NCBI GenBank assembly: GCA_038064595.1
Contig: JBBTSV010000005.1
Span: 612-64,611 of the forward strand
Direction: 5' to 3'
Length of the DNA: 64,000 bases
Source of the DNA: Patescibacteria group bacterium
GTDB lineage: Bacteria; Patescibacteriota; Minisyncoccia; Phycocordibacterales; Phycocordibacteraceae
The translations under genes and the position numbers were made by a program. Positions 8,343-52,533 of the stretch are shown here, piece by piece; position 1 is the first letter of the stretch, and every line of letters starts with the position of its first letter. Under the pieces are notes generated by a model. It ran no database searches and had not been told where the DNA came from. It saw only the letters and a program-made list of their open reading frames with translations.

Positions 8343-8849
8343 ATGTACAGCCTCGTCATCCTCTTCGTCTTTCTCCAAGCGCTCGGCGCCTTCACTGGCG
8401 CCTTTGCGACCATCTGGGCAGAGCTCGCCTATATCCGCGCGATGCGCGACGGCAAGGTCGACCGCGCCGAGCGCACACACCTCGACGCTATAGCCACAGG
8501 GCTCCGCTTTGGTATGACCTTGATCCTTCTCGCCTCGCTCGGGCTCGTTATCCTCGCGTATGTGAGTGACCCCGGAGTGCAGCCCGGCTTCTCACAGAGC
8601 TACTGGACCCTGATGCTCCTCTCGCTCCTTATCGTCTGGGTCTCGTGGGCGCTCTCGCGTAAGCGAGTCTCCTTTGCCTACGGTTCAGCGATCGCCTTCT
8701 CGGCATGGTGGTTTCTCGCCTACGCGACGCTCGGGTGGCTCCCGCTCCTCTCCTTTGGCGCCGTGCTCGCCTCCTTCGTCGTCGTCACGGGGATCTTTTT
8801 TGTACTCCTCCAGCTCCTGCGCACTATTTCTCTCCGCTCCCGTAAGTAA
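8343..8849 (+). CDS. Hypothetical membrane protein (168 aa)
   Basis: 4-5 hydrophobic helices, host-like codon usage. Confidence 0.6.
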   Translation: MYSLVILFVFLQALGAFTGAFATIWAELAYIRAMRDGKVDRAERTHLDAIATGLRFGMTLILLASLGLVILAYVSDPGVQPGFSQSYWTLMLLSLLIVWVSWALSRKRVSFAYGSAIAFSAWWFLAYATLGWLPLLSFGAVLASFVVVTGIFFVLLQLLRTISLRSRK

Positions 8850-8851
8850 AA

Positions 8852-8892
8852 AATATTCTTATCACTAGCCGATCGTCAAAGATAAGAATATT
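8852..8892. repeat. AT-rich 12-bp-stem hairpin AATATTCTTATC...GATAAGAATATT; related copy at 31648-31689
   Basis: Perfect 12-bp inverted repeat; the 16-mer AAATATTCTTATCACT recurs at 31647. Confidence 0.6.
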
Positions 8893-8972
8893 GACAAACC
8901 ATTTGAATAGTTTATAACCTAGGGCAGTAGTACCCGCGATTTTCGCAGACCGTTCCTCAGGGTTATCTGGGG

Positions 8973-9646: not shown

Positions 9647-10744
9647 ATGCTTAAGATCGGTATCGTGGGTCTGCCGAACGTCGGTAAGTCGACGCTTTTT
9701 AATGCGCTCACCAAGGCGAGTGTGCCGGCAGAGAATTATCCTTTCTGCACCATCGACCCCTCGGTCGGTGTCGTCGGCGTGCCAGACGCGCGGCTCGCCA
9801 AGCTCGAGGCCTTTTCTTCGAGCGCCAAGGTGATCCCGGCGGCGATAGAATTCGTCGATATCGCAGGGCTCGTGAAGGGGGCCTCCACCGGCGAAGGGCT
9901 CGGGAACCAGTTCCTAGCCAATATCCGCGAGACCGATGCGATCCTCGAGGTGGTGCGCTTCTTTGACGACACCAGCATCCTCCACGTCGAGAATGAGGTC
10001 GAGCCGTATAAAGATATCGAGATTATCAACCTCGAGCTCGTCCTTGCCGACGCCGAGCAAGTGCGTAAGCGCCGCGACAAAATCGCACGCGACGTTACCA
10101 TGGGCGACAAGGCCGCGGTGCTTGAAGACAGCGCGCTCACCCTCCTTGCTCAAGCCTTCAGTCTCGGTAAGCTCGCGCTCCAGGCAGGGCTCTCAGAGGA
10201 TCAGAAAAGGGCAGTGCAGTCGCTCAACCTCCTTACCCTGAAGCCGATTCTTTATGCGTTTAATAAAAAGAGCGGTGGGCACAACCTCGATGAGCTTAAG
10301 GATGGGCGCGCGGAGCGCGCCATCGAGCTCGTGGAGTCGCTTGGCGGCCGCTACATCTATCTCGACGCCGCGACCGAGCGCGAGCTTAACGACGTCGCCG
10401 ATGAAGACCGTGAAGGCTTTCGCCAAGAGCTCGGGGTGAGCGAGGACGGCCTCGCGGGGCTCATCACCGCGGCATACAAGACGCTCGGGCTCATCTCCTT
10501 TTTTACGACCGGCAAAGATGAGACCCGCGCGTGGACGGTGAAGGCGGGGAGCACGGCGCCCGCGGCGGGCGCCGCCATCCACAATGACTTTTTGAATAAA
10601 TTTATCCGCGCCGAGGTTATCGAGTGGAGCACACTCCTTGCCGCTGGCTCCTACGCCGCCGCCCGCGAGAAGGGCCTCGTGCGCACAGAAGGGAAGGAGT
10701 ACGTGGTGAAGGATGGGGATGTTATAGAGTTTTTGCACGGCTGA
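9647..10744 (+). CDS. ychF: Ribosome-binding ATPase YchF (Obg-family GTPase)
   Basis: MLKIGIVGLPNVGKSTLFNALT G1 motif, 365 aa with C-terminal TGS domain. Confidence 0.9.
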   Translation: MLKIGIVGLPNVGKSTLFNALTKASVPAENYPFCTIDPSVGVVGVPDARLAKLEAFSSSAKVIPAAIEFVDIAGLVKGASTGEGLGNQFLANIRETDAILEVVRFFDDTSILHVENEVEPYKDIEIINLELVLADAEQVRKRRDKIARDVTMGDKAAVLEDSALTLLAQAFSLGKLALQAGLSEDQKRAVQSLNLLTLKPILYAFNKKSGGHNLDELKDGRAERAIELVESLGGRYIYLDAATERELNDVADEDREGFRQELGVSEDGLAGLITAAYKTLGLISFFTTGKDETRAWTVKAGSTAPAAGAAIHNDFLNKFIRAEVIEWSTLLAAGSYAAAREKGLVRTEGKEYVVKDGDVIEFLHG

Positions 10745-15074: not shown

Positions 15075-15509
15075 ATGGGAAAGAAACGTATCATTAAGAA
15101 GAGCGGTAAGGGCCTTGACCAGGGGCGCAAGGAGCGTGCACTCTCAAAGGCGACGAAGCGTCATCTCGATAAGGGAGTGCTCCACATTGAGGCGACGTTT
15201 AATAACACCAAAGCGATTCTCACTGATGAGAAAGGTAATGCGATTGTCTCTTCAAGCGCGGGCGCACTCGGCTTTTCTGGCGCGCGTAAGTCGACCCCCT
15301 ATGCGGCGGCCAAGGTGGGTGAGTTTCTCGGCGAGAAAGGGATGATGATTGGCCTCAAGGAGGCGGCAGTTGTGATCCGTGGTGTGGGAGCTGGTCGTGA
15401 GTCGGTTCTCCGCGCGTTCTCCAGCAAAGGGATCCAGATCCGCGCGATTAAAGATGTGACGCCGATCCCGCACAACGGTCCCCGGCCGCCGAAGCCGCGT
15501 CGCGTGTAA
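15075..15509 (+). CDS. rpsK: 30S ribosomal protein S11
   Basis: Canonical S11 sequence. Confidence 0.95.
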   Translation: MGKKRIIKKSGKGLDQGRKERALSKATKRHLDKGVLHIEATFNNTKAILTDEKGNAIVSSSAGALGFSGARKSTPYAAAKVGEFLGEKGMMIGLKEAAVVIRGVGAGRESVLRAFSSKGIQIRAIKDVTPIPHNGPRPPKPRRV

Positions 15510-15518
15510 TACTTTATT

Positions 15519-16130
15519 ATGAAAACGGGACCACGATACAAAATTGCAAAGCGCCTTGGCGCAACCGTCTTTGAGAAAGCGCAGACGCAGAAATTTGCTA
15601 TTTCTGCAGAACGGAGCGCAAAGAACAAGCGTCGTGGGCGTGGGCGTCAGAGCGAGTACGGCAAGCAGATGCTCGAGAAACAGAAGGTCCGCGTGACCTA
15701 CGGACTCCCGGAGCGCCAGTTCCGTAACTATGTGCGCAAGGCGCTCACGGCGCATGCGGCGCAGCCATCGGATCGTCTTCATGAACTCCTTGAGCTTCGC
15801 CTCGACAACGTGGTGTGGCGCCTCGGTCTCGCTGCCACGCGCCGCGCGGCGCGCCAGATGGTAGCACATGGTCACGTGATGGTGAACGGGAAGAAAATGC
15901 GTGTGCCTTCGTGTGCTCTCTCGGTAGGTGACGAGATCAGTATCCGCGATGGATCAAAGGAGCATGGGGTGCTGGTCGGCTTCGCTGAGCGCTTTGCCGA
16001 GCGTCCGCTCCCCTCCTGGCTTAACTGGAATGCGAGTTCGATGAGCGGGAGCGTGGTCGAGCGGCCCACCTCGGCGTCAGCAGATGTCGCAGGCGACATG
16101 GTCTCAGTGCTCTCGTTCTACACGAGGTAG
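15519..16130 (+). CDS. rpsD: 30S ribosomal protein S4
   Basis: Canonical S4 with S4 RNA-binding domain. Confidence 0.95.
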   Translation: MKTGPRYKIAKRLGATVFEKAQTQKFAISAERSAKNKRRGRGRQSEYGKQMLEKQKVRVTYGLPERQFRNYVRKALTAHAAQPSDRLHELLELRLDNVVWRLGLAATRRAARQMVAHGHVMVNGKKMRVPSCALSVGDEISIRDGSKEHGVLVGFAERFAERPLPSWLNWNASSMSGSVVERPTSASADVAGDMVSVLSFYTR

Positions 16131-16167
16131 TTTTTCATTATTATTCACTGGTAATTACGATTGCGTT

Positions 16168-17118
16168 ATGGAATACCACATTACTTTGCCAAGCAAGCCC
16201 CGTATCGTGTCTGAAGAGGACATGCAGGGCGTTTATGAAATTGATTCACTTTATCCGGGATACGGTCATACGCTGGGCAACAGCTTGCGCCGTATCATCC
16301 TCTCTTCACTCCCGGGCGCAGCGATCACCCAAGTCAAGATCGAGGGTATTCCTCACGAGTTTGCAACTATTGATGGGATGCGCGAGACGGTGATGGAGCT
16401 CCTCCTCAATCTCAAGCGCGTTCACTTTATCCTTCACGGTGATGAGCCACAAACCATCTCCCTTATCACTAAGGGCACCGGCGAGATAACCGCAAAAGAC
16501 TTTAATCTCCCCAGCCAGGTCGAGATCAAGAATCCGGGTCAGCACATCTGCGATCTCGCCGGAAAGGCAACCCTCGAGCTTGAAGCAACGATCGAACGCG
16601 GCCTCGGCTACGTGCCGCGCGAAGTGTTGACCAAAGACAAAGTCGACATCGGCACCATCGCGCTTGACGCGACGTTCACACCGATCCGTCGCGTGAACTA
16701 CGAGGTCGATAACATGCGCGTGGGAGACCGCACCGACTTCAACCGTCTCCGTATCCTGATCGAGACCAACGGCACGATCGCTCCGCGCGAAGCACTTGAA
16801 AAGTCAATCGAGACGATGATTCACCAGCTCAAGGCCGTGATTGGTTTTCAAGAGAATGAGCCGGCGCATGAACGTACGGCATCAGCTTCGGCAAAGGAGA
16901 CCGACGGCGAGCTTGATGCGACGAAGGTAAAGATTGCTGATCTCGGTCTTCCTACTCGTGTCGTTTCGGCACTCGAGGAGGCAGGGATCAAGAGTGCAGC
17001 CGGTCTCGCCCGCAAGACCGCCTCGGCACTTAAGGAGCTTGACGGTATTGGCGACAAGGCGGTTGAGGAGATCTCGACCGCGCTTGCCGGCTGCGGCCTC
17101 ACGCTCAAAGGCGAGTAA
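16168..17118 (+). CDS. rpoA: DNA-directed RNA polymerase subunit alpha (divergent CTD)
   Basis: MEYHITLP start within ORF-track entry 16084; NTD dimerisation domain conserved; CTD much more divergent than the stand-alone copy at 8973. Confidence 0.9.
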   Translation: MEYHITLPSKPRIVSEEDMQGVYEIDSLYPGYGHTLGNSLRRIILSSLPGAAITQVKIEGIPHEFATIDGMRETVMELLLNLKRVHFILHGDEPQTISLITKGTGEITAKDFNLPSQVEIKNPGQHICDLAGKATLELEATIERGLGYVPREVLTKDKVDIGTIALDATFTPIRRVNYEVDNMRVGDRTDFNRLRILIETNGTIAPREALEKSIETMIHQLKAVIGFQENEPAHERTASASAKETDGELDATKVKIADLGLPTRVVSALEEAGIKSAAGLARKTASALKELDGIGDKAVEEISTALAGCGLTLKGE

Positions 17119-17123
17119 CTACT

Positions 17124-17477
17124 ATGGCGTATACCAAGAAAGCACAGACTTTCCATCGTAAGACCGGTCAGCGCCGGGCGCTTCTCAAGTCCTTGATGCG
17201 CTCACTGGTCTTGGAGGAGCGGATCTCGACTACGGAGGCCAAGGCCAAGGCACTGCGCCCCGCGATCGAGCGTCTCGTCACGTACGGAAAGAAGAATACG
17301 CTCGCGACCCGCCGTTTCGCGCAGGCAAAACTCGGTGACAAAGAAGCAACCAAGAAGCTTTTTGACACCATAGCGCCTCGGTATGTTGATAGAAACGGCG
17401 GGTACACACGGGTCGTGAAGCGCTCGGTGCGCGGTAAGAGCGATGCACGCAAACTTGCGTATATCTCATTTGTCTAG
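17124..17477 (+). CDS. rplQ: 50S ribosomal protein L17
   Basis: Canonical L17. Confidence 0.95.
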   Translation: MAYTKKAQTFHRKTGQRRALLKSLMRSLVLEERISTTEAKAKALRPAIERLVTYGKKNTLATRRFAQAKLGDKEATKKLFDTIAPRYVDRNGGYTRVVKRSVRGKSDARKLAYISFV

Positions 17478-17493
17478 TACACCATATTTATCT

Positions 17494-17865
17494 ATGACGC
17501 GGATTATCAAACCAGAAACAACAACCTATACGATCGACGCCACCGACCGCACGCTTGGCCGTGTGGCAAGCGAGGCAGCGCACGCCCTTCTTGGGAAGCG
17601 TTCGGTCCACTTCGACAAACAAACTGCACACCCGGTTACGGTGGTAATCGAGAATGCCGGCAAGCTCCACCTTCCGCTCCGTCGCACAACGGGGAAAATC
17701 TACACCCGCTACACGGGCTATCCCGCCGGACTCCGCTCGATGACCATGGCAGAGATGGTTGCGAAGAAGGGCATTGCAGACGTTGTCAAAAAGACGGTTG
17801 ACGGGATGATCCCGCGCAACAAGCTCCGTGCACCACGGATGAAGAATCTTATTGTTAATGCGTAA
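17494..17865 (+). CDS. rplM: 50S ribosomal protein L13
   Basis: MTRIIKPETTTYTIDATDRTLGRVAS matches L13 N-terminus. Confidence 0.9.
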   Translation: MTRIIKPETTTYTIDATDRTLGRVASEAAHALLGKRSVHFDKQTAHPVTVVIENAGKLHLPLRRTTGKIYTRYTGYPAGLRSMTMAEMVAKKGIADVVKKTVDGMIPRNKLRAPRMKNLIVNA

Positions 17866-17866
17866 T

Positions 17867-18262
17867 ATGGCTACTACTTTCACTCATGCTGTTGGGCGCC
17901 GTAAGACCGCGATCGCGAGCGTGCGCATCACGCCAGCAAGCAAGTCAAGCCTCACGGTCAACGGCAAAAGCGCCAAGGATTATTTCAAGACTGCTGATCG
18001 TGCGGTTATTGCTGAAGAGGCATTTGGAAAAGCTGAGAGTGCTGAACACTACACCGTGACCGCTCATGTCTCGGGAGGTGGCATCTCTGCACAAGCAGAC
18101 GCGGTTCGCCACGCTATTAGCCGCGCGATTATTGCAGCTGAGCCGAAGACCCGCACGATTCTTAAGAAGGCCGGCTTTCTCAAGCGCGACCCGCGTGCCA
18201 AGGAGCGCAAGAAGCCGGGCCTCAAGAAAGCCCGCAAAGCGCCGCAGTGGTCTAAGAGATAA
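17867..18262 (+). CDS. rpsI: 30S ribosomal protein S9
   Basis: GRRKTAIASV ... C-terminal KKPGLKKARKAPQWSKR; start could be 17858. Confidence 0.9.
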   Translation: MATTFTHAVGRRKTAIASVRITPASKSSLTVNGKSAKDYFKTADRAVIAEEAFGKAESAEHYTVTAHVSGGGISAQADAVRHAISRAIIAAEPKTRTILKKAGFLKRDPRAKERKKPGLKKARKAPQWSKR

Positions 18263-18275
18263 AGTAATACAAAAC

Positions 18276-18303
18276 AGCAACCGCCCCAAAGGGGCGGTTG
18301 TGT
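18276..18303 (+). terminator. Rho-independent terminator after rpsI
   Basis: caaccgcccc-aaa-ggggcggttgtgtgc. Confidence 0.55.
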
Positions 18304-18361
18304 GCTATATATCAGCCAGAGCCCAGCAATCTCGCTTGGGCAACTCGAGAGAGGAGACGGT

Positions 18362-28043: not shown

Positions 28044-28670
28044 ATGCCCTTCCCGGCAGCACTTTCATCAGAAGGTCAGAAGGAGGCCGCTCGGCTCTAC
28101 AGCTGCGGCCTTAGTGCGCAGCAGGTAGCAGATACGCTCAAGGTCAGTCTCAATGCGACCTACTACGCGCTGCGTCATCTGAAGGTTCAGCGGCGCACGG
28201 CGAAGCAGACAAATCAAATTCGCTTTGAGGCAAAACCGCTTTCATATAGTCTAAAAACCTCTCTCACGGAGAAGGACGAACGTTTGAAGGCCGCCGCAAT
28301 CATGCTGTACTGGGCAGAAGGGTATAAGGTCGGGCGAAACACAGTAGATTTTGCAAATTCTGATGCGCAAATGGCCCTGATCTTTAAGCGATTTCTTTCA
28401 GAAATTTGCCGGGTCGATGAAAGACGGATCCGAGGACATATTTATTGCTATGAAGGTCAGAATGTGGCTGAGCTGACTCGATACTGGAGTCGTCTCCTTT
28501 CAATACCTGAAAAGCAATTTATTAAACCCTATATAAAGAAGGCAGCTGAACCAGGGCCGCGAGGTCCGAGGATGCTTCACGGTCTTGTACATATAGTGTA
28601 TTCTGATCAGAAGTTGTTGAGGCAAATACTCGCATGGATAGAGGAGTATCATAAGGACTTGACAAAATGA
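28044..28670 (+). CDS. HTH DNA-binding domain fused to a LAGLIDADG-like homing-endonuclease-like domain
   Basis: N-terminal ARLYSCGLSAQQVADTLKVSLNATYYALRH (HTH); then LYWAEGYK...NSDAQMALIFKRFLSEI resembling a single LAGLIDADG motif; stop is 1 nt before tRNA-Tyr. Confidence 0.45.
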   Translation: MPFPAALSSEGQKEAARLYSCGLSAQQVADTLKVSLNATYYALRHLKVQRRTAKQTNQIRFEAKPLSYSLKTSLTEKDERLKAAAIMLYWAEGYKVGRNTVDFANSDAQMALIFKRFLSEICRVDERRIRGHIYCYEGQNVAELTRYWSRLLSIPEKQFIKPYIKKAAEPGPRGPRMLHGLVHIVYSDQKLLRQILAWIEEYHKDLTK

Positions 28671-28754
28671 GCGTCGGTGGCGGAGTGGTCAATCGCACGA
28701 GACTGTAAATCTCGCGGACATAGTCCTACGAAGGTTCGAATCCTTCCCGGCGCA
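28671..28754 (+). tRNA. tRNA-Tyr (anticodon GTA), class II long variable arm
   Basis: Acceptor gcgtcgg/ccggcgc (one G:U); anticodon stem cgaga/tctcg with loop ctGTAaa; T-arm gaagg-ttcgaat-ccttc. Confidence 0.75.
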
Positions 28755-28811
28755 CAGAGCGAAAAGAGAAATCCCCGTAAGGGGATTTCTCTTTTCGGGT
28801 ATACTGGTGCG

Positions 28812-31254: not shown

Positions 31255-31620
31255 ATGGCTACTCACACCGGACTCAAGGTCAAGACAGGCGTCGCGCTCG
31301 GGCTCGCGGCAGCCGCAGCCGCAGGCTACTACTTTTACGGCAGCGACAAGGCCAAGCAGCACCGCAAGATCGCTACGCGCTGGGCGGCCGATATGAAAGA
31401 TGATGTGATGAGTAAAGCCGCGCAGCTCAAAGAGATGAGCGCGAAGGACTTTGCCACCATCGTCGACACTGTCTCGGCCACCTACGCGGGTGCCCGCGCC
31501 ATCGACGCGAGCGACCTCAAGCGTGCCGCGCAGGAGCTCAAGGATAACTGGAAGGAGGTCCAGAAGGAGCTCGTCACTAAGGCCTCCAAGGCGGCCGCCA
31601 AAGCCCGCAAAGCGGGCTAG
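31255..31620 (+). CDS. Hypothetical protein (121 aa), N-terminal hydrophobic segment then Ala/Lys-rich helix
   Basis: Clean ORF ending in hairpin gcccgc-aaa-gcgggc and T-run. Confidence 0.55.
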   Translation: MATHTGLKVKTGVALGLAAAAAAGYYFYGSDKAKQHRKIATRWAADMKDDVMSKAAQLKEMSAKDFATIVDTVSATYAGARAIDASDLKRAAQELKDNWKEVQKELVTKASKAAAKARKAG

Positions 31621-31647
31621 TCTCGCGGGCTCTCGTTTTTTTGTTGA

Positions 31648-31689
31648 AATATTCTTATCACTCGACGGTCGGCCATACATAAGGATATT
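31648..31689. repeat. Second copy of AT-rich hairpin AAATATTCTTATCACT...ATAAGGATATT (see 8852-8892)
   Basis: Shares 16-mer with 8851-8866; stem retained with a compensated loop. Confidence 0.55.
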
Positions 31690-31780
31690 TGATCGGTGAC
31701 CGACCATACACAATCATGACGCTATAGCGTGAAGATTAGGTATACCCGCCGCGGAAGTTTAACTTCCGCAGCACCCTTAT

Positions 31781-31843
31781 CCGCCAGCTTTTGAAATAAG
31801 CGCAGTAGCGGCGATTGACTTTTAGCATGGATAGCGCTATCCT
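31781..31843 (+). promoter_or_regulatory. Promoter-like module CCGCCAGCTTTTGAAATAAG-N14-TTGACT-N17-TATCCT
   Basis: Same 20-nt AT-rich element plus N14 plus TTGACW recurs at 32589-32628. Confidence 0.45.
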
Positions 31844-31847
31844 GAGG

Positions 31848-31906
31848 GCATAACCATAGAGAAAACCCTGTTGCATATCCGTATGCAATGGGGGTTTCTC
31901 TTTTTA
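31848..31906 (+). ncRNA. Candidate ~55-nt sRNA ending in a nested terminator hairpin plus T5
   Basis: Hairpin gagaaaaccc ... ggggtttctc enclosing ttgcata-tccg-tatgcaa, followed by ttttt; 3' end overlaps the NYN gene stop on the opposite strand. Confidence 0.3.
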
Positions 31907-32422
31907 GGGCGACGCTCTTTCAGAAAACTTGTGGTACAGATCGTTGAGGAAGACTAGGTCTGTATTTTTATTGCGAAGCAGAAATGAGCACTTTTGTTTA
32001 TTCGGAGCGATTACGCTATGCATCGCCTTATGCTCGACAAGGAATTCGACGAGGCAGCCAAAGTCGCCGTCACCGGTGACCAATACGCACTGGTCGTACT
32101 CTTTTTCATAAAACTGTGACGTTGCTTTAAGCACCAGCTCGGCGTCGCAGTTACCCTTGACCTCTCCATCTACCGAGATTGTTTGCTTGAAGATAAGAAT
32201 GAAGCCGCACTGCTGCAAATGCTCATACAGCTTCGTTTTGCCGGGAATAAGACCGATGAAGAGATAGACATTGGTCGGGTTGTACTTTTGGCGTAGCCAC
32301 CCACGGAACTTTTTGTAGTCGATACGGAACCCGAGCTCGGCAGAGGCGCGATGCAGATTTGCGCTGTCGATATAGACGTTGATGCGAGCGGCGTCCATGC
32401 CGTAAGCATAGCAGATCACCAC
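31904..32422 (-). CDS. NYN-domain (LabA/PIN-like) ribonuclease family protein
   Basis: INVYIDSANL ... GNCDAELVLKA ... VLVTGDGDF match the NYN acidic motifs; likely start at MDAAR (32398). Confidence 0.7.
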   Translation of the reverse strand: MVICYAYGMDAARINVYIDSANLHRASAELGFRIDYKKFRGWLRQKYNPTNVYLFIGLIPGKTKLYEHLQQCGFILIFKQTISVDGEVKGNCDAELVLKATSQFYEKEYDQCVLVTGDGDFGCLVEFLVEHKAMHSVIAPNKQKCSFLLRNKNTDLVFLNDLYHKFSERASP

Positions 32423-32425
32423 GTT

Positions 32426-32501
32426 CCCCTAGGACCGTCCTAGGGGGATCATCCACGGTGAGACTATCCGCAAGGTGTCACCTCGAGGTGACACCTTGCG
32501 G
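32426..32501. promoter_or_regulatory. Operator-like palindromes: 21-bp (cccctaggac c gtcctagggg) and a perfect 34-bp palindrome (ccgcaaggtgtcacctc|gaggtgacaccttgcgg)
   Basis: Located between divergent NYN gene and the 32702 gene. Confidence 0.55.
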
Positions 32502-32588
32502 AATAAATATACAGATCGGATTCGGTAGGGGAGGTGCTGGGGATGCTCAAGGCAGCATCGCCGAGGGCCGGACCGCCGCGATCCTCTT

Positions 32589-32651
32589 CCGCCACCTTTT
32601 GAAATAAACTTAGTTAGGCTGTTTGACAGTACATACGCAATGTGCTATAAA
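32589..32651 (+). promoter_or_regulatory. Promoter CCGCCACCTTTTGAAATAAA-N14-TTGACA-17-TATAAA
   Basis: Canonical -35/-10 with upstream AT-rich UP-like element; ~45-nt leader with AGGAGA SD before ATG 32702. Confidence 0.55.
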
Positions 32652-32701
32652 AGAATTAGACGGAATTGGTCCGTCGTATCGAATCTACACAGGAGAGTTT
32701 G

Positions 32702-33334
32702 ATGTCCCATAGCAACGCAAGAACTGGTGCCAGTGTTCCGCTTCTCACGCAAAAGCTGGCGCAGACTGGCCTCTACGAGTTACTGAATCTCGACGGCGGG
32801 TTCACAGACAAGAAGCTGTACTGGAGCCAACGTGATTGCAACGAGTGTGTTCTCGAGGAGCATCCGTTCGGGCTTGATACGTCCACGGGCTCGGAAACGC
32901 AATTGGATCATGGGGTCCGACTCATCGCATGCGATGGCGGCACCGACACTTCGGTCAAGGCGATGAAGCTCATGCTCGGCCATCATGCCGCGGTCCATCC
33001 CGTCAGCGGCCGCTTAGACTTCCGTCTGCGGATCATCCGCATCCGGAAAGCCGCAGAACATTGGGAGCGCCCGGGGCAATTCATCCACGACCTGTACTTC
33101 GAGCTGATCACCTGCGTCGGGAGCTTCATGTGCGGTGGCGTCAACGACCATACCGGCGAAGGCGGGTACGGCGGAGAGCAGTTGGAGGCAATCTTCCGCT
33201 TCATCGCCGCTCTCTACGACAAGCCGCTCGAAGAAGTCGTGATCCCCCAGGCCGACGCCGAGCCAGCACGGCGGAAGCTATCCGCCGCATACGGCAAGTT
33301 TGTCGAGCGGAAGAGGAGTGCGGTGGAAGCGTGA
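32702..33334 (+). CDS. Hypothetical Cys/His-rich protein (210 aa), unknown family
   Basis: Own promoter and terminator; CNEC, IACDGG, CVGSFMCGG clusters; CTG/CCG/CGG codon bias unlike core genes. Confidence 0.5.
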   Translation: MSHSNARTGASVPLLTQKLAQTGLYELLNLDGGFTDKKLYWSQRDCNECVLEEHPFGLDTSTGSETQLDHGVRLIACDGGTDTSVKAMKLMLGHHAAVHPVSGRLDFRLRIIRIRKAAEHWERPGQFIHDLYFELITCVGSFMCGGVNDHTGEGGYGGEQLEAIFRFIAALYDKPLEEVVIPQADAEPARRKLSAAYGKFVERKRSAVEA

Positions 33335-33354
33335 CCTGGGCAGTACCTTCACGA

Positions 33355-33394
33355 AGGCCCACGATTAGGCTCATAGCCAGATCGTGGGCCTTTT
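33355..33394 (+). terminator. Rho-independent terminator
   Basis: aaggcccacgat...atcgtgggcctttt. Confidence 0.55.
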
Positions 33395-33443
33395 CGTTTC
33401 CTATGACGAAGGGGTTGTGGGACGAAATGATATACTGGGGACC

Positions 33444-34265
33444 ATGACGGTCGCCGAGAGAAAAATCCTTTCTGTAGTCGCCCAAAAACCTTATTTCTTG
33501 AAGGACAACTTCGTTCTATATCACGGAGACTCAATAAACGTTCTCGCGCAGCTGCCCGAGAATTCGATCGACATGATCTTCGCCGATCCGCCGTACAATC
33601 TCTCCAATGGCGGCTTCACGGTGCACGCCGGACGCATGGTGAGCGTCAACAAAGGTGTCTGGGACATTAGCAAAGGATTTGAAGACGATTACGCCTTCCA
33701 CTATCGTTGGCTTGAGGCCTGCAAGCGCGTTTTGAAGCCTGAGGGCACACTCTGGGTGAGCGGCACCTATCACTCTATCTATCAGTGCGGTCATGCACTC
33801 CAATCCCTCGGCTACCATATCCTCAACGACATTTCATGGTTCAAGCCGAATGCCTCGCCAAACTTGAGCTGCCGATTCTTCACCGCGAGCCACGAGACAA
33901 TCGTCTGGGCGCGCAAAGATAAGAAGGCAAAACATACTTTCAATTATGAGCTAATGAAAGAAGGGAACTGGCCCGAGGATCAGTTGAAGAAGCCGGGACT
34001 CCAGATGCGCTCCGTATGGTCCATGGGCACCCCTCGCCCGGAGGAGAAGAAATACGGCAAGCATCCCACCCAGAAGCCGCTCGACCTGCTCAAGCGCATA
34101 GTGCTTTCGAGCACCAACAAAGGTAACGTCGTCCTCGACCCATTTACAGGCAGCTCCACGACGGGCATCGCCGCCGCTCTAAATGGGCGTAAATTCATCG
34201 GCATAGACATGGAAAAGAAGTACCTTGATCTTTCAATAAAAAGATTTAATGATCTTCGTGTATGA
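33444..34265 (+). CDS. Beta-class (DPPY then FxGxG) DNA N6-adenine/N4-cytosine methyltransferase
   Basis: IFADPPYNL motif IV upstream of DPFTGSSTTG motif I; ATG follows GATATACTGG; stop overlaps next gene. Confidence 0.85.
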   Translation: MTVAERKILSVVAQKPYFLKDNFVLYHGDSINVLAQLPENSIDMIFADPPYNLSNGGFTVHAGRMVSVNKGVWDISKGFEDDYAFHYRWLEACKRVLKPEGTLWVSGTYHSIYQCGHALQSLGYHILNDISWFKPNASPNLSCRFFTASHETIVWARKDKKAKHTFNYELMKEGNWPEDQLKKPGLQMRSVWSMGTPRPEEKKYGKHPTQKPLDLLKRIVLSSTNKGNVVLDPFTGSSTTGIAAALNGRKFIGIDMEKKYLDLSIKRFNDLRV

Positions 34266-34882
34266 AAATTGTTACGCGTACTATAGCAATAAGAAATTTG
34301 AAGAAATACATCGGGAAAGATTTGCGTCCACTCGCACTCAAGCATGGCATAACTACCTACGAGACCGGAAAGCAAAACAAAGGTTGGAAAGGTTTAGTTT
34401 TAGGACCATTGGCAGGTCTAACGAATAATAATTTGAAGGCCCCAAATGGCTTAGGTTTTGAGTTAAAGTCAGTTGCTTTCCATAAAGTAAAGGGCGAGCT
34501 CGTACCCAAGGAAACAATGGCGATCACAATGATCAACCCCAATGAGCTGCGGAAACACACATTCTATAAGAGCCACTGTTGGGAGAAACTGAAAGGCTTA
34601 GTTTTCTGTGCGGTTGAGTGGAGTGGCAAAAACTCTGGGGAAGCGAGGTTGCTCAAAGTGGCGAGCTTGGATTTTGCTGAAGATGACAAGCTTATAAAAG
34701 AGGTTAAGGCAGATTACGATCTCATTCGTAAAAAGCTAATTGCGGAAGGTTTCGACGCCTTGACGGGCAAGGACGGTAAATGGATACAAGCTCGAACCAA
34801 AGGATCCGGGCACGGTTCCACTAGCCGTGCATTCTATGCACGTACCTCATTCGTAAAGAAAATTTTCGAAACAGCAAGTTGA
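34262..34882 (+). CDS. MutH/Sau3AI-family type II restriction endonuclease (GATC-family fold)
   Basis: NKGWKG, GLGFELKSV and AFYARTSFVKKIF parallel E. coli MutH DKGWVG, ALGVELKTIP, RGFYLKKNFT. Confidence 0.7.
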   Translation: MKIVTRTIAIRNLKKYIGKDLRPLALKHGITTYETGKQNKGWKGLVLGPLAGLTNNNLKAPNGLGFELKSVAFHKVKGELVPKETMAITMINPNELRKHTFYKSHCWEKLKGLVFCAVEWSGKNSGEARLLKVASLDFAEDDKLIKEVKADYDLIRKKLIAEGFDALTGKDGKWIQARTKGSGHGSTSRAFYARTSFVKKIFETAS

Positions 34883-34889
34883 AGTCAAT

Positions 34890-35504
34890 ATGGAACTCCT
34901 TTACATAACTTTAGGATGGTTGTTTGGCTTACTCACGCCTCCCATTTCTTCTAGAATAGACAGAAAATATAAAGAAAAAGACTTTAGATTTGCAATATGT
35001 TCGGAGCTCAAAAATCTTGCTACTAGGATCGCGGGGCTTTCCTTTAAAGTCCATCTTCATTTGGGGAGTTTAGACAAACCATCATTAAGGTGGATTGGGG
35101 ATGTCTATAAAAAGTACAATGATGGCATGGTAACACCTGAAATGGAAAAAATATTCGGAGCGTCAGATGCAGATTTTAAAACGGTAATGGAGAAATATAA
35201 AGCATCTGAAAACAGATCGCTTGCTATCAAGACTTTCTCACTCCCAGTTATGGACTCTTTGTTGGGAGACATATGGGTTTTTGATTCACAATTTCAACGA
35301 GAAATCTTGGAATTGAGAAGTCAGGTGGATATTTTAAATCAAGAAATTGAAAATTGCATGCAATACTTTTTTCTAACTTTTGACCCTAGTACAATGAGTG
35401 CAAATGCGACTGTTTTAAATACGAATCTAAAAGAGAGTCACGGACTCATTGCAGACAGATGTAAAATTGTAGTGAGTAAAATTGACGTGATTATTGATAA
35501 ATAA
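34890..35504 (+). CDS. Hypothetical protein, very AT-rich gene, N-terminal TM helix
   Basis: 204-aa ORF; clearly AT-rich by eye in a higher-GC genome. Confidence 0.5.
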   Translation: MELLYITLGWLFGLLTPPISSRIDRKYKEKDFRFAICSELKNLATRIAGLSFKVHLHLGSLDKPSLRWIGDVYKKYNDGMVTPEMEKIFGASDADFKTVMEKYKASENRSLAIKTFSLPVMDSLLGDIWVFDSQFQREILELRSQVDILNQEIENCMQYFFLTFDPSTMSANATVLNTNLKESHGLIADRCKIVVSKIDVIIDK

Positions 35505-35532
35505 CACTTCGTTTTGTGGTATCGTACAGAGC

Positions 35533-35628
35533 ATGAATACAGGAGGAGAAGATGGGGGAGGGAAACCGGTGCTGGTGTCGGGGGTGAAGCCGACGGGGGA
35601 GCTGCATATCGGGAAGGGTGTATTATAA
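35533..35628 (+). pseudogene. Duplicated trpS promoter plus first 27 codons, running into an early stop (31-aa remnant)
   Basis: ~97 bp at ~35512-35608 is ~96% identical to 36417-36514 (the trpS start); reads MNTGGEDGGGKPVLVSGVKPTGELHIGKGVL*. Confidence 0.6.
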
Positions 35629-35633
35629 AGCGA

Positions 35634-36278
35634 GTGAAAACATTATTTGTTGACGAATCGGGCAATCTTGGGACAAAAGATCGATACTTTGTGCTCGTTC
35701 TATTTGCTCCTCAACGGAGCAAGCGCGTAGTGAATTTTATGAGGAAGTTCTGTGCCACAAATAAGCTGTCTGAAGTGAAGGCGAGCAGACTGTCTTTCCC
35801 TCAAAAGCAAGAGATTTTTAATAAACTCTGCAGTGCCAATGACTATACGATTTCATACATCGTCGCGGATAAGCAGAATATTGATAATAAGAAATTGTTT
35901 GAGGATAAAAACCTCTGCTACAACTACTTGTTTTCGTTCTTGGTGAAAAAGACCATAAAAAGTTCCCCGGAAGATCTGTCCATTCTGCTTGATAATCACT
36001 CGACTAAGGTCGGTTCTATTAACTCTCTTTCTGACTACATTAAGATAAAAGCGTTTACGCAGTTTGGCTACCAGCATAACCTGCAAATTGCGTACACAAA
36101 CTCGGAACATTCCAAGGTGGTGCAGGCGGTTGATGTGATTGCGAATGCAATTTGGGCGCATTACAACTATGGTGCGAGCCATTTCTATAACATGCTGACG
36201 ATCAGTGAATCGATTCGATTTCCGCAGAACAAATTTGGACAAAATCTCGTTATCCCCACGGCTCCTATCTCACCTTGA
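35634..36278 (+). CDS. DUF3800-like protein
   Basis: GTG start; KTLFVDESGNLG N-terminus typical of DUF3800; AT-rich gene; ORF-track entry 35514 is an out-of-frame read through the trpS repeat. Confidence 0.55.
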   Translation: MKTLFVDESGNLGTKDRYFVLVLFAPQRSKRVVNFMRKFCATNKLSEVKASRLSFPQKQEIFNKLCSANDYTISYIVADKQNIDNKKLFEDKNLCYNYLFSFLVKKTIKSSPEDLSILLDNHSTKVGSINSLSDYIKIKAFTQFGYQHNLQIAYTNSEHSKVVQAVDVIANAIWAHYNYGASHFYNMLTISESIRFPQNKFGQNLVIPTAPISP

Positions 36279-36377
36279 TTTTATCTGCAATTTCATATAC
36301 TATTAACTTGATGTAAATCCGGTGTGGAGCTTATAGCAAGTAAGTGGCGTATTCCGTCACCGAAACACTGGTAATCT

Positions 36378-36402
36378 AGAAAAGCCCTGCGGGGCTTTTC
36401 TG
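36378..36402 (+). terminator. Rho-independent terminator upstream of trpS
   Basis: gaaaagccctgcggggcttttctgcttt. Confidence 0.55.
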
Positions 36403-36437
36403 CTTTCTAGGTTAATTTTTGTGGTATCGTACAGAGC

Positions 36438-37415
36438 ATGAATACAGGAGGAGACAATGGGGGAGGGAAGCCGGTGCTGGTGTCGGGGGTCAAGCCGACG
36501 GGGGAGCTGCATATAGGCAACTACTTTGGCGCGATGCGCCAGTTTGTCGAGCTGACCAAGGAGGGCAAGTATCGGCCCTTCGTCTTTGTCGCCGACTATC
36601 ACGCGCTCAACTCGGTGCAGGATCAGGGGGAGATGAAGCGGCGCACCCGAGAGGTGGTGATGGCCTACCTCGCTATCGGGCTCGACCCCGAGCAGGTGAC
36701 GATCTTCAAGCAGTCGGAGGTCCCGGCGCACACCGAGCTCTGCTGGATCTTCGACACCCTCACCACGATGCCGTATCTCATGCGCGCGCACGCCTTCAAG
36801 GATGCCGAGGCCAAGAATAAGGAGATCAATGTCGGGACCTTCAACTACCCGATCCTCATGGCTGCCGATGTCCTCCTCTATGACGCCGCCGTGGTGCCAG
36901 TGGGGCAGGATCAGAAGCAGCATATCGAGATCATGCGCGACATCGCAGAGAAGTTTAACCGGATATATAAAACGGAGGTGTTCAAGCTCCCCGAGCCCAT
37001 GATCGTGCCCGAGGTGGCGGTGGTGCCGGGCACTGATGGCGGCAAGATGAGTAAGAGCGAGGGCAACGTGATCCCCCTCTTCGGCACACGCGACGAGCTC
37101 GCGAAGGCGGTGATGAGTATTGTCACTGACTCTGCTGGCGGCCGGCCGGAGAATGTCTACGCTATCCATAAACTAGTGCGCAGCGAGCAGGAGCTCGAGG
37201 CAGTCTATGCCGAGCACGAAGGGAATTACAAAATGCTCAAAGAAATTTTGATTGAGGATCTCGACCGCGTTCTCGCGCCTATGCGCGCGAAGTATGAGGC
37301 GCTCAAGGAGGACTCGAGAGAGGTGGACGTGATCCTCGGCCGCGGTGGGCAAGTGGCACGTGAGGTGAGCGAGGCCAAGATGGCGCAGGTCCGCGCAGCG
37401 ATCGGGGTTGCATAA
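36438..37415 (+). CDS. trpS: Tryptophanyl-tRNA synthetase
   Basis: GELHIGNYFGA (HIGH) and KMSKS motifs; ATG 7 nt after GTGGTATCGT -10-like motif; alternative GTG start at 36483. Confidence 0.9.
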   Translation: MNTGGDNGGGKPVLVSGVKPTGELHIGNYFGAMRQFVELTKEGKYRPFVFVADYHALNSVQDQGEMKRRTREVVMAYLAIGLDPEQVTIFKQSEVPAHTELCWIFDTLTTMPYLMRAHAFKDAEAKNKEINVGTFNYPILMAADVLLYDAAVVPVGQDQKQHIEIMRDIAEKFNRIYKTEVFKLPEPMIVPEVAVVPGTDGGKMSKSEGNVIPLFGTRDELAKAVMSIVTDSAGGRPENVYAIHKLVRSEQELEAVYAEHEGNYKMLKEILIEDLDRVLAPMRAKYEALKEDSREVDVILGRGGQVAREVSEAKMAQVRAAIGVA

Positions 37416-47552: not shown

Positions 47553-48791
47553 ATGAACCGATGGTTATCGACGATCCTTTTTATCCTCATATCACTATTG
47601 TGGTGGAGCGCACCAGGCAGTGCTCTTGCGGTCGAATCTTCACTCCAGTCTCTCATTGATGCAAACAACGCACAGCTTCTTTCACTCCAAAATAAAATTG
47701 CCGAATATCAGAAACAGCTTGATGCTCTTGGAACTGAAAAAACGACTCTGAAAGCGGCCATCGATTCACTCACGATTACCCAACAAAAACTGACGACTCA
47801 GATCCAAGCCACTCAAAATAAGATACAGTCAGCAAATCTCCAGATTCAAAAACTCTCGGAGTCAATCGGGAACACTGAGGAAACGATTGGCGAAAACCAG
47901 TATGCGATAGCTAAAACGCTTCGAGAGATCGCACAGGCACAGACTGAATCATCATCACTTATCACTCACGTGCTTGCCACACACTCTTTTACCGATGCGT
48001 GGAAGATTACCGATGAGGCGATTCAGTTTAATACAGCGCTCGCTTCTGACATCGAGAAACTACGCGCCACAAAGCAACAGCTCTCGACAAACCGTTCGGC
48101 AGTGACAAAGACCAAAGAATCACTGGTCTCCCTGCAGCAAGATCTCTCGACCCAGAAACGTCAGGTACTTGCGAGTAAAACCGCCCAGCAAGAGCTCCTG
48201 ACTCAAACAAAAAATCAGGAGTCGAATTATCAAAAACTTCTTTCTCTTGCCAAATCAGAACTCGCAAGCTATTCGACCTTCACCACCAACGCTGGCGGCT
48301 CTAAGCTCTTGGCCAATCAGACTTCCTGTGACGACTGGGGTTGCTACTACAGTCAGCGTGACACACTTTGGGGAAACATGCCGCTCAATGGCACGCGCTT
48401 TCGACTCGCAAGCGATGGGTGTCTCGTCACGGCAATGGCGATGATAATGACTCACTATGGACATCGCGACGTAACGCCCGTAACCATTAATGTTGATTCA
48501 AATAATTTTGCCTCCTATTATCCGGCGTATCTCCTTTTCACGATCCGCGTCGATGGTGTGACCGCTACCCGCAAAGCAGCCACAATCGATGCGTCGCTTA
48601 ATAAAGGCGAGCCAGTGGTAGTCGGTGTGCATGCCTATGGCGGCACGCACTACGTGGTGCTCACCAGTGGGAGCCGCGGCAATTACCTCATGCGCGATCC
48701 CTATGTGGCGAATGGGAAAGATATCAGCTTCTCGAAACACTACTCGGTGAGCAATATCTTTGGTGTCTCCCGCGTGATTATCAGCGGCTAG
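47553..48791 (+). CDS. Secreted coiled-coil protein with C-terminal papain-like (C39-like) cysteine-peptidase domain
   Basis: Signal peptide, ~230-aa Q/L/T-rich coiled coil, then Cys-rich globular C-terminal domain; gene is AT-rich by eye compared with flanking murG/gltX. Confidence 0.55.
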   Translation: MNRWLSTILFILISLLWWSAPGSALAVESSLQSLIDANNAQLLSLQNKIAEYQKQLDALGTEKTTLKAAIDSLTITQQKLTTQIQATQNKIQSANLQIQKLSESIGNTEETIGENQYAIAKTLREIAQAQTESSSLITHVLATHSFTDAWKITDEAIQFNTALASDIEKLRATKQQLSTNRSAVTKTKESLVSLQQDLSTQKRQVLASKTAQQELLTQTKNQESNYQKLLSLAKSELASYSTFTTNAGGSKLLANQTSCDDWGCYYSQRDTLWGNMPLNGTRFRLASDGCLVTAMAMIMTHYGHRDVTPVTINVDSNNFASYYPAYLLFTIRVDGVTATRKAATIDASLNKGEPVVVGVHAYGGTHYVVLTSGSRGNYLMRDPYVANGKDISFSKHYSVSNIFGVSRVIISG

Positions 48792-49407
48792 TTCCGTCGC
48801 GCAGGCGCCAGAGGAGTAGGGAAGCGAAGGTACGAAAAGGCGCCCATTTCTCTGCTAGAGCAAGGGCTTTTTTATGTGACGTGTCTTTAGGCAGATCATA
48901 GAGCGTTTCCATAGCCCGAATGAGACCGAGGTCACCGACTGAAAAGACGTCCTCGCGCCCTAGGGCAAAAATAAGAAACATCTCGGTTGACCAAGGTCCT
49001 AAACCCCATATTTCCTGGAGTTTTTGACCCGCCTCTGCCTCGGGGAGCTTGCGTAGAGTAAGGAGGTCAAGGGAGCCATCTCGGCAAGCCGAGGCTATGG
49101 CCTTGAGCGTCTTCATCTTCGACCCTGACAGGCCAGCGGCGCGGAGTTTAAGATCGCTTGTCTTGAGGACAGACGTGGGGGTGAGCCGTTGTCCACAGGC
49201 AGCTTTAACCCTCTTATATATAGAATCAGCAGCTTTGGTCGCCAGTTGTTGAGAAACGACGATACCGCATAGCTCCTCAAAAAGCTTCGGACGGGAGGTT
49301 TTGCACGGTAATTCAGGAGGAATTGACTTATGGTATGCCAGTGTTGCGGTATAGAAGTGCGGGTCAACGCGCTTGAAGTGTTGCAGGGCAACAGTGCGCC
49401 GAGTCAT
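48781..49407 (-). CDS. HhH-GPD DNA glycosylase (AlkA-like 3-methyladenine glycosylase II)
   Basis: GLGPWSTEMFLIFALGREDVFSVGDLGL helix-hairpin-helix GPD motif with catalytic Asp. Confidence 0.8.
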   Translation of the reverse strand: MTRRTVALQHFKRVDPHFYTATLAYHKSIPPELPCKTSRPKLFEELCGIVVSQQLATKAADSIYKRVKAACGQRLTPTSVLKTSDLKLRAAGLSGSKMKTLKAIASACRDGSLDLLTLRKLPEAEAGQKLQEIWGLGPWSTEMFLIFALGREDVFSVGDLGLIRAMETLYDLPKDTSHKKALALAEKWAPFRTFASLLLWRLRDGTSR

Positions 49408-51862: not shown

Positions 51863-52438
51863 TTAGACCTTGAGTTTGAAATGTTCCCGAAAAGCTTTAT
51901 CTGACTCGAGGGCTTCAGCAACAAAAAAGCGCATCTCGCCAACGCCGCTCTTGAGATGTGCACGCACGAGAGAAATAAACTCGTCGCAAGGATACGGGTA
52001 TACCCAAACGCTGTCTTGCATACGTATAAATCCAGCTCCGTGGAGGAGCCGACGGAGCTGGGTACGAGCGCGACGTCGACGTTCGCTTATGTCGAAAATA
52101 AGCACACGCCACTTCCCGTCCCAAAATGCTGGTTCGGGGATCGCATACTCTCCAAACTCGATCTGTGCCATCAGCTCACGACCTTTGTCGGTTATCCAAA
52201 CGCGCTCACTCCTCCGTTCCCCAGTGACAGTCACGAGACCTGCACTTTTGAGTCGACTGATTCCTTGTGTGATACGTCGATACAGTTGTGTACGATTTTT
52301 TGCGGGACGATCCAATTCTTTCAGAAGACGCGTCATCTGCGGCGCAATGAGTGCGACGCTTATCACTCCAACAGTAACGAGTGAGCGAAGTAACAGATTT
52401 CGCATCGGTACCCGTCGTTGTTTCTGTTCTTTGGCCAT
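51863..52438 (-). CDS. PaaX-family transcriptional regulator-like protein
   Basis: Winged-helix (GLVTVTGERRSERVWITDKGRE) then PAFWDGKWRVLIF matching the PaaX PAWDGKWLLLL core. Confidence 0.6.
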   Translation of the reverse strand: MAKEQKQRRVPMRNLLLRSLVTVGVISVALIAPQMTRLLKELDRPAKNRTQLYRRITQGISRLKSAGLVTVTGERRSERVWITDKGRELMAQIEFGEYAIPEPAFWDGKWRVLIFDISERRRRARTQLRRLLHGAGFIRMQDSVWVYPYPCDEFISLVRAHLKSGVGEMRFFVAEALESDKAFREHFKLKV

Positions 52439-52533
52439 TGTTCCATATTATAGCCTATAGGATGTATCAAGGAATATTCGAAATCGTGTATCGTCGTGTA
52501 TCTGTGTGGTGAGGAATTCTCACCACATTGCAG

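Follow-up and report, generated by a model that had tools for sequence, protein, structure and literature searches.

How did about 4.8 kb of accessory genes come to lie directly upstream of the essential gene trpS in a Patescibacteria group bacterium? The DNA in question is a stretch of 64,000 nucleotides (contig JBBTSV010000005.1 of assembly GCA_038064595.1, positions 612 to 64,611 of the forward strand), which is called the window here and to which all coordinates refer unless another locus is named. The accessory segment (31621-36416) extends from a YtxH-like gene to trpS. It is predicted to code for a NYN-domain RNase, a 210-aa protein, a type II restriction-modification (R-M) pair, a 204-aa protein and a DUF3800 protein. 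The original prediction, made from the sequence alone, regarded the segment as one island inserted at the 5' end of trpS. Our results do not support this, because the repeated trpS 5' end encloses only 801 bp. The segment is better explained as a composite accessory islet of defence type, which a Paceibacteria-type bacterium of the Candidate Phyla Radiation (CPR) would have built up by several separate acquisitions. We give this explanation a probability of about 0.65.

The position upstream of trpS is variable

Copies 100% identical to the window were found in Hainich groundwater contigs (sample names Hain_H41, 0.1 um) and in short contigs of other runs. Scanning with TrpS, in one genome per species and in metagenome contigs, yielded 160 loci. 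By TrpS, the nearest genomes belong to Paceibacteria and Kaiserbacteria-type Patescibacteria, with identities of 84% or less. In relatives with recognisable left anchors, the gene order is a 94-aa gene (h94), the YtxH-like gene, a variable gap of 0-2.5 kb, trpS and aspS. The gap contains a dihydroorotate-dehydrogenase-like (pyrD-like) gene in five relatives, sometimes with one further gene. Elsewhere it contains a membrane protein gene (L101), a small secreted protein gene (L033) or nothing, so that trpS directly follows the YtxH-like gene (L015). In no relative does trpS follow the six genes of the window, and the pyrD-like gene has left no trace anywhere in the window. The six segment proteins were found near trpS in none of about 150 related loci, except for the R-M pair of L161. 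Because these proteins are missing near trpS in relatives and the gap contents differ, the position is variable and its content in the window is lineage-specific. The proposal of an accessory, defence-type segment between core genes was thus borne out.

L161 is a low-GC genome whose TrpS is 61% identical to that of the window. Its methyltransferase and endonuclease genes lie about 4 kb downstream of trpS, and their products are 74% and 77% identical to those of the window. There (15165-18327) the pair is followed by genes for an SDH-type ClpP-like serine protease and a DUF6680 protein, forming a small accessory cluster a few kb from trpS.

The repeated trpS 5' end brackets the DUF3800 cassette alone

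A direct repeat of 104 nt (94% identical) spans trpS from -21 to +83, up to codon 28 in the HIGN signature. A repeat of about 97 bp had been proposed as the right end of the whole island. The repeat exists, but it brackets only 35616-36416 (801 bp), which is the DUF3800 cassette; the other five genes lie outside, and no further match to it was found near the left end of the segment at about 31620. Because only the cassette is enclosed, the segment appears to have been assembled in several steps. The NYN RNase gene, the 210-aa gene, the R-M pair, the 204-aa gene and the 0.8-kb DUF3800 cassette would then be independent modules. An assembly artefact as the source of the repeat was ruled out, since separate assemblies concur and there is a 6% difference between the copies.

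The 21 non-coding nucleotides of the repeat contain an extended -10 box, TGGTATCGT; relatives have conserved it, 6-8 nt from the ATG. Because of this short distance, trpS is probably leaderless in the window lineage, and the repeat would carry the whole minimal promoter. The downstream copy leaves the essential trpS gene whole, and the upstream copy is a dead-end stub leading into DUF3800. This stub forms an open reading frame (ORF) of 31 codons (35533-35628) that ends 5 nt before the DUF3800 start codon. A TG(G/A)TATCGT box at 6-8 nt before the ATG is common to the relatives and suggests that leaderless trpS is group-wide. The window TrpS has six additional N-terminal residues (GGDNGGG-type, 36438-36470) that are not found in relatives; in the extra DNA, an AGGAGG precedes an ATG (36457) that is out of frame.

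Of the six mismatches between the copies, five fall at codon position 3 and one at position 1, and the 21 non-coding bases have none. This pattern is suggestive of two trpS alleles that diverged while coding, and it fits that history better than decay after an in-place duplication. Since the mismatches are nearly all at third positions, the two alleles were most likely joined by inter-lineage recombination. Candidate routes are the single-crossover insertion of a circle with a trpS 5' piece and homology-anchored illegitimate recombination. The repeat could otherwise be a target duplication produced on the spot by insertion of the cassette into trpS, for instance through fill-in of widely staggered nicks, with the mismatches arising later. 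The closeness of the repeat ends to the cassette, within 4 to 10 bp, would agree with such an event, and so would the same footprint in the distant genome L086. A dead copy, however, should decay everywhere, including the 21 non-coding nucleotides, and we know of no transposase that gives target duplications of about 100 bp. We consider a target duplication unlikely, and a transposase-made one less likely than inter-lineage recombination.

Among 151 trpS loci tested, a fragment of the trpS 5' end upstream of trpS occurs only in the window lineage and in L086. In L086 the trpS promoter and the first 39 codons recur, with a frameshift, 5.8 kb before the gene itself (3996-4125; 9938-10076), and between the two copies is a cluster of Nudix, YcaO, alpha/beta-hydrolase and C39-like peptidase genes. 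A second, divergent TrpS-like gene is present in L086 at 466-1449.

The bracketed insert of L086 would also agree with a single 4.8-kb integrative island that entered the trpS 5' end of the window lineage site-specifically, with the repeat as the scar of the attachment site and the recombinase lost or located elsewhere. Integrases that bring a replacement gene end typically leave an island with one gene end in duplicate, and cassette homologues in other genomes adjoin large serine recombinases and tRNA genes. Such an island is nevertheless quite improbable, because five of its genes lie outside the repeat, its composition is heterogeneous and its modules are found separately in other genomes. 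There is also no recombinase to move it. The segment proteins include no integrase or transposase by Pfam, as had been predicted, and a query search found no large serine recombinase in the whole 64 kb. To our knowledge, serine recombinases do not produce 104-bp repeats. Integration at the tRNA-Tyr gene was ruled out; this gene is 3 kb away with conserved genes between.

Foreign composition is confined to the right-hand 2.2 kb

The flanks have a GC content of about 0.59, which falls to 0.37-0.45 at 34200-36400. The segment genes were compared with 46 other long ORFs of the window by GC content at third codon positions (GC3) and by codon-adaptation index. The GC3 z-scores are -2.7 for the MutH-like endonuclease gene, -4.4 for the 204-aa gene and -2.1 for the DUF3800 gene, and foreign composition is confined to these three genes in the right-hand 2.2 kb. 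The NYN gene, the 210-aa gene and the methyltransferase gene differ from the core by less than one standard deviation in both GC3 and codon-adaptation index. The abrupt compositional change that had been claimed for the segment is thus a property of its right half, and the left-hand genes are core-like. Likewise, the claimed use of CTG, CCG and CGG codons applies to the 210-aa gene, in which CGG and CTG are enriched, but not to the methyltransferase gene (CTG 0.08, CGG 0.00).

That three of the six genes are core-like in codon usage would be expected if the segment were native and vertically inherited, its low GC being due to unusual amino-acid or expression constraints. The synonymous sites of the DUF3800 gene and the R-M pair are saturated against all sampled homologues and identify no recent donor, which would also suit a native segment. 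We regard vertical inheritance as highly improbable, because all relatives lack the genes at this position and carry pyrD or other genes instead, the GC3 z-score goes down to -4.4, and the same genes occur in unrelated contexts in other lineages. The same saturation ruled out a recent transfer of the DUF3800 gene and the R-M pair from the sampled homologues.

A composite origin is therefore preferred, with left-hand genes that are perhaps older and a cassette (the last 0.8-0.9 kb or so) that would have been inserted together with the duplicated trpS start. Several points weigh against it. The genes of core-like composition could be old residents rather than acquisitions. The mismatches number only six, and under neutrality at least five of them would be at third positions with p of about 0.02. 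Neither an empty-site nor an intermediate genome turned up, and look-ups of the exact proteins returned only identical copies of the contig from several samples. Since there is no such genome and the closest TrpS is 84% identical, the order and mechanism of the acquisitions are given here as proposals.

Other low-GC3 ORFs (0.46-0.53) are present at 28044-28670, 47553-49407 and 51870-52460, and include those for a protein with a C39-like peptidase domain and a HhH-GPD glycosylase. They may be further accessory patches.

The DUF3800 cassette in other CPR genomes

The DUF3800 protein matches PF12686 with 46.3 bits (cut-off 21, E 9e-12) and PHROG 9243 (E 1e-24). Its translation contains the N-terminal DE motif (MKTLFVDESG) and the C-terminal QxxD motif (VVQAVDV) as described in PMC7736814. 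A conserved TATTAT box at 6-9 nt before the start codon suggests that the mRNA is leaderless. This box is the left limit of the cassette, and a terminator is its right limit. The search gave at least 185 homologous proteins; the best 120 share 64-90% identity, many of them on very short contigs. When the window was compared with six DUF3800 loci, homology extended from 35620 or 35635 to 36406 every time, which is nearly the DNA between the trpS repeats. The repeat ends are 4 to 10 bp from the cassette limits. Against all homologues, the proportion of nonsynonymous differences (pN) of the DUF3800 gene is 0.07-0.19. Together with the saturated synonymous sites, this indicates that the gene is old and strongly constrained, and that the sampled copies were not recent donors.

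The cassette occurs in several contexts. In L167-L171 and L173-L182 it lies beside a divergently oriented gene for a 500-aa large serine recombinase, with the two starts about 20 nt apart. In these loci inverted repeats of 55-110 nt are nearby, a tRNA gene is at the recombinase end, and the cassette has about 76% nucleotide identity to that of the window. In L183-L192 it follows a pair of genes for a helix-turn-helix (HTH) protein and a short-chain dehydrogenase, within 96-nt inverted repeats. It is also found after FtsX (L193, L196), before pyrG (L196) and beside a S49 peptidase (L172). Mobilisation, which had been left unclear, is therefore partly explained, as this cassette accompanies large serine recombinases in other CPR genomes, although none is present in the window.

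Several observations were made on these loci. The cassette of L197 (5823-6170) is immediately upstream of the RNase P RNA gene, and the recombinase end overlaps the tRNA gene in L167 and L169. The inverted repeats (55-110 nt, 88-99%) were located at 4529-4636/6874-6985 in L167, 4532-4643/6865-6978 in L169 and 1-96/1978-2073 in L183. They flank recombinase-DUF3800 or HTH-dehydrogenase-DUF3800 units, and in L167 and L169 the coding region of the recombinase contains their left arm. The short contigs L170 and L171 terminate exactly in inverted repeats. Comparison of L173 with L176 (1-3240) revealed a 3.2-kb block, with an HTH gene and an Eco57I-type R-M gene, that is exactly inverted between the two samples. 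The block lies past the 3' end of the serine recombinase gene, with the breakpoint about 246 nt after its stop codon. Possible explanations are an invertase activity of the recombinase and an element present in two orientations.

A predicted structured RNA 3' of the DUF3800 gene

The 130 bp after the DUF3800 stop codon are about 80% conserved despite the saturated synonymous sites of the gene. The consensus from an alignment of ten distinct sequences has a short outer helix, a 7-bp helix that closes a two-hairpin junction, and then a terminator. Standard pairs are found in 99% of the cells, with two-sided changes at 9 of the 29 pairs, in four helices. None of 500 shuffles matched the observed values, and the pairing was 42-48% when the partners were slid by 1-3 columns. 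Two positions are mostly G-U (in 9 and 7 of the 10 sequences) and would be C-A mismatches on the opposite strand, so an RNA of the sense strand fits. The folding z-score of the window RNA is -3.9. All ten sequences have a TAnnnT (-10-like) box at 6-7 nt before the first paired base. Because of this fixed distance, an own promoter and an RNA of about 95 nt are predicted.

The covariance model built for this RNA found a single copy in the window (114.8 bits) and none in 2.09 Mb of CPR loci without a DUF3800 gene. The core sequence pattern was present in 29 of the 29 DUF3800 loci fetched by then, and had no match in viral contigs. Searches of Rfam 15 gave no match at E up to 10 with a 251-nt query, nor with seven homologous loci. 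Tandem RNA repeats of the ToxIN-like kind, a mark of type III toxin-antitoxin systems, were not found; the RNA is in single copy. The RNA is thus conserved in structure and, among the sampled DNA, occurs only with the DUF3800 gene.

Could the 130 bp instead be a DNA-level recombination site, or merely a conserved 3' untranslated region with its terminator? Their position at the edge of the cassette would fit, as would the inverted repeats and contig breaks just beyond them in relatives that bear a recombinase. We consider this improbable, because compensatory changes occur in four helices, the conserved G-U pairs become C-A on the other strand, and the sequence has a -10-like box at fixed distance upstream and a canonical terminator downstream. 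A published class of DUF3800-associated RNAs (PMC5737381) also matches an RNA.

The cassette would accordingly comprise two minimal transcription units, a leaderless gene for a nuclease of RNase H fold and the RNA of about 95 nt, which is equipped with a -10 box and a terminator. We infer that the protein and the RNA act together, and that the RNA may be a partner, regulator or neutraliser in a defence or addiction module. TnpB with omega RNA and IS110 with bridge RNA are also pairs of a RNase-H-fold enzyme and a structured RNA at the edge of an element. By analogy, the DUF3800 protein and its RNA might be an RNA-directed nuclease or recombination unit that helps to move itself. If true, this would explain the sharp limits of the cassette, the variety of its surroundings in CPR genomes and why the trpS 5' end is duplicated. 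It is very doubtful, as the protein has only 214 aa and the RNA has no obvious variable guide segment. Transport by the serine recombinase that is often next to the cassette would be simpler.

The restriction-modification pair

The methyltransferase has an intact S-adenosylmethionine-binding motif (FTGSSTTG) and an intact catalytic motif (DPPY). Its best solved relative is CcrM (E 2e-59). The NCBIfam CcrM model gives 7e-73 and yet is under its cut-off, because the methyltransferase does not have the CcrM C-terminal domain. The methyltransferase and endonuclease genes are co-oriented with a 4-bp overlap at 34262-34265, and pairs of this type are common and highly conserved in CPR. PADLOC on the segment returned MTase_II, REase_II, NYN and a weak PDC-M04A match. 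The domain calls of the original prediction (NYN, beta-class methyltransferase, MutH/Sau3AI-fold endonuclease and DUF3800) were all confirmed by Pfam, PADLOC and NCBIfam, and hidden Markov model searches matched no family for the 210-aa and 204-aa proteins.

The endonuclease can be aligned with MutH along its entire length. Its family gave 3678 matches, and 20 members from different CPR groups have an average identity of 89%, every one with 206 aa. The window endonuclease is an outlier with 76-81% identity. It is off the consensus at 7 of 25 near-invariant columns, including E48G and R49P. Residue E48 aligns with E56 of MutH, which we take to be a metal-binding residue; it is Gly in the window copy and Glu in 19 of 19 relatives, and the ELK motif is present. 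The window endonuclease is therefore probably decaying with loss of its likely catalytic Glu, and given this change the methyltransferase may effectively be an orphan. A point against decay is that the position of the catalytic Asp70 (D70) of MutH is Asn throughout the endonuclease family; the active site may thus be arranged differently, and E48G is perhaps not inactivating. Neither GATC (observed/expected 1.03) nor GANTC (210 vs 226 expected) is depleted in the window, which gives no clue to specificity; the lack of avoidance neither confirms nor refutes restriction.

The structured RNA, the probable decay of the endonuclease and the cassette homologues that travel with large serine recombinases had been missed by the original prediction.

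Other features of the segment

The features of the segment and its flanks are collected in Table 1.

Table 1. Position of predicted genes, RNA and repeats in the accessory segment and its flanks
Feature	Position	Strand	Basis or remark
Left flank, ordinary genes	tRNA-Tyr 28671-28755		tRNA-Tyr, S41 peptidase, 235-aa gene, 94-aa gene (h94), YtxH-like gene
Imperfect hairpin AATATTCTTA...TAAGGATATT	31646-31695		left edge of variable segment
Promoter-like stretch (TTGACT, 17 nt, TATCCT)	31775-31843	+	diverged direct copy of the 210-aa gene promoter region (32583-32651)
Terminator-like hairpin with T-run	31866-31903	+	adjoins NYN stop codon
NYN-domain (LabA-like) predicted RNase, 164 aa	31904-32398	-	Pfam, PADLOC
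Second palindrome	32426-32446		NYN/210-aa divergent intergenic region
Perfect 18+18 palindrome	32467-32502		NYN/210-aa divergent intergenic region
210-aa protein	32702-33334	+	no Pfam family; small uncharacterised family, 114 cluster representatives
Beta-class N6-adenine DNA methyltransferase	33384/33444-34265	+	Pfam N6_N4_Mtase, 202 bits; PADLOC MTase_II
MutH/Sau3AI-fold endonuclease, 206 aa	34262-34882	+	Pfam MutH; PADLOC REase_II
204-aa protein	34890-35504	+	no Pfam family; lowest-GC gene, 0.356
Upstream repeat copy	35512-35615	+	trpS extended -10 promoter and 27 codons
DUF3800 cassette	35620-36406	+	nucleotide homology limits against other CPR genomes
DUF3800 gene, GTG start, 214 aa	35634-36278	+	Pfam PF12686
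Predicted structured small RNA, about 95 nt	36310-36405	+	covariation, covariance model
RNA helix P0	36310-12/36374-76
RNA helix P1	36319-25/36365-71
RNA helix P2	36329-32/36338-41
RNA helix P3	36344-49/36355-60
RNA terminator	36379-87 paired with 36392-400	+
Downstream repeat copy	36417-36520	+	working trpS promoter (TGGTATCGT) and codons 1-28 of intact trpS
Right flank, ordinary genes	trpS 36438-37415		trpS (intact), aspS

The hairpin at the left edge, which had been noted as repeated elsewhere, has a 16-nt arm, AAATATTCTTATCACT, at 31647 that is found again exactly at 8851-8866. Both copies are within hairpins (0 of 100 shuffles gave 4 matches). The second hairpin (8845-8893) lies between two convergent 168-aa ORFs, neither with a Pfam match.

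The NYN protein matches PF01936 with 55.2 bits (curated cut-off 24.2) and the PADLOC NYN model at 2.9e-11. Its gene stands alone and is bracketed by a weak direct repeat (31775-31843 and 32583-32651) with a 20-nt core of 95% identity and collinear TTGAC and GCTAT. This repeat matches the promoter region of the gene that follows; it is arranged like the trpS repeat around DUF3800 but is older or weaker. The palindromes between the NYN and 210-aa genes are possibly an operator. The 210-aa protein has a confident AlphaFold2 model (mean confidence score pLDDT 89), and its sole fold relative is a Thermus hypothetical protein.

The 204-aa protein is predicted to consist of a membrane helix at the N-terminus and, after it, a helical bundle. 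Its family is rare, with seven relatives besides the window copy. One homologue is in the company of a defence island, next to a MmeI-type enzyme, an AAA_13 ATPase, a Ymh-family protein and RmuC.

Relation to known systems

Eleven unrelated RNA motifs, DUF3800-I to -XI, are associated with DUF3800 genes, several with terminators, and their function is unknown (Weinberg et al. 2017, PMC5737381). Like them, the window RNA is structured and tightly tied to a DUF3800 gene, is followed by a Rho-independent terminator and has UAA triplets in unpaired stretches. Unlike them, it forms a compact three-way junction, invariably lies on the strand of the gene immediately 3' of it, and as far as sampled is confined to Patescibacteria. 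The Rfam search, with a library confirmed to hold DUF3800-I and -IX, sets it apart from those motifs, and it may equal another published one. We file it as a further member of the DUF3800-associated RNA class. DUF3800 has an RNase H fold and is an accessory of retron type VII and of Cas12a2 (PMC7736814, PMC10910872, PMC12669027). The window protein shares with these type VII and Cas12a2 (type VI-F) nucleases the Pfam family, the DE and QxxD motifs and a putative non-coding nucleic acid partner. It differs from them in being a stand-alone protein of 214 aa with no reverse transcriptase, tetratricopeptide repeat domain or nearby CRISPR array.

The R-M pair resembles type II systems with a CcrM/HinfI-like methyltransferase and a MutH/Sau3AI-fold endonuclease in its 4-bp overlap, single operon and intact methyltransferase motifs. 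Unlike the usual type II restriction enzymes, its endonuclease family is unusually conserved, with 89% mean identity across CPR classes. It departs from MutH in the Asn at the D70 position, and the window copy also in the loss of the residue aligned to E56.

Phages e14 and 21 in icd of E. coli are integrative elements that bring a replacement gene end. As in icd, the frame of the essential gene is intact here and a partial copy with mostly synonymous differences is at the far side of the insert. In contrast to icd, the 5' end with the promoter is duplicated rather than the 3' end, and the insert is 0.8 kb without an integrase. The large-serine-recombinase elements of other CPR genomes (L167-L171, L173-L182) have the same cassette with the same limits, but the window has no divergent serine recombinase, inverted repeats or adjoining tRNA gene.

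The other genes of the segment are ordinary, namely a probably decaying R-M pair, a NYN RNase and two uncharacterised proteins, and the interest is mainly in the DUF3800-RNA pair. The cassette is minimal, strongly constrained and widespread in CPR, and is thus a convenient candidate for testing the function of DUF3800 with its RNA. The locus also suggests that small CPR genomes may gain accessory modules beside an essential gene, without disrupting it, by duplicating its promoter and start, and L086 would be a second independent case.

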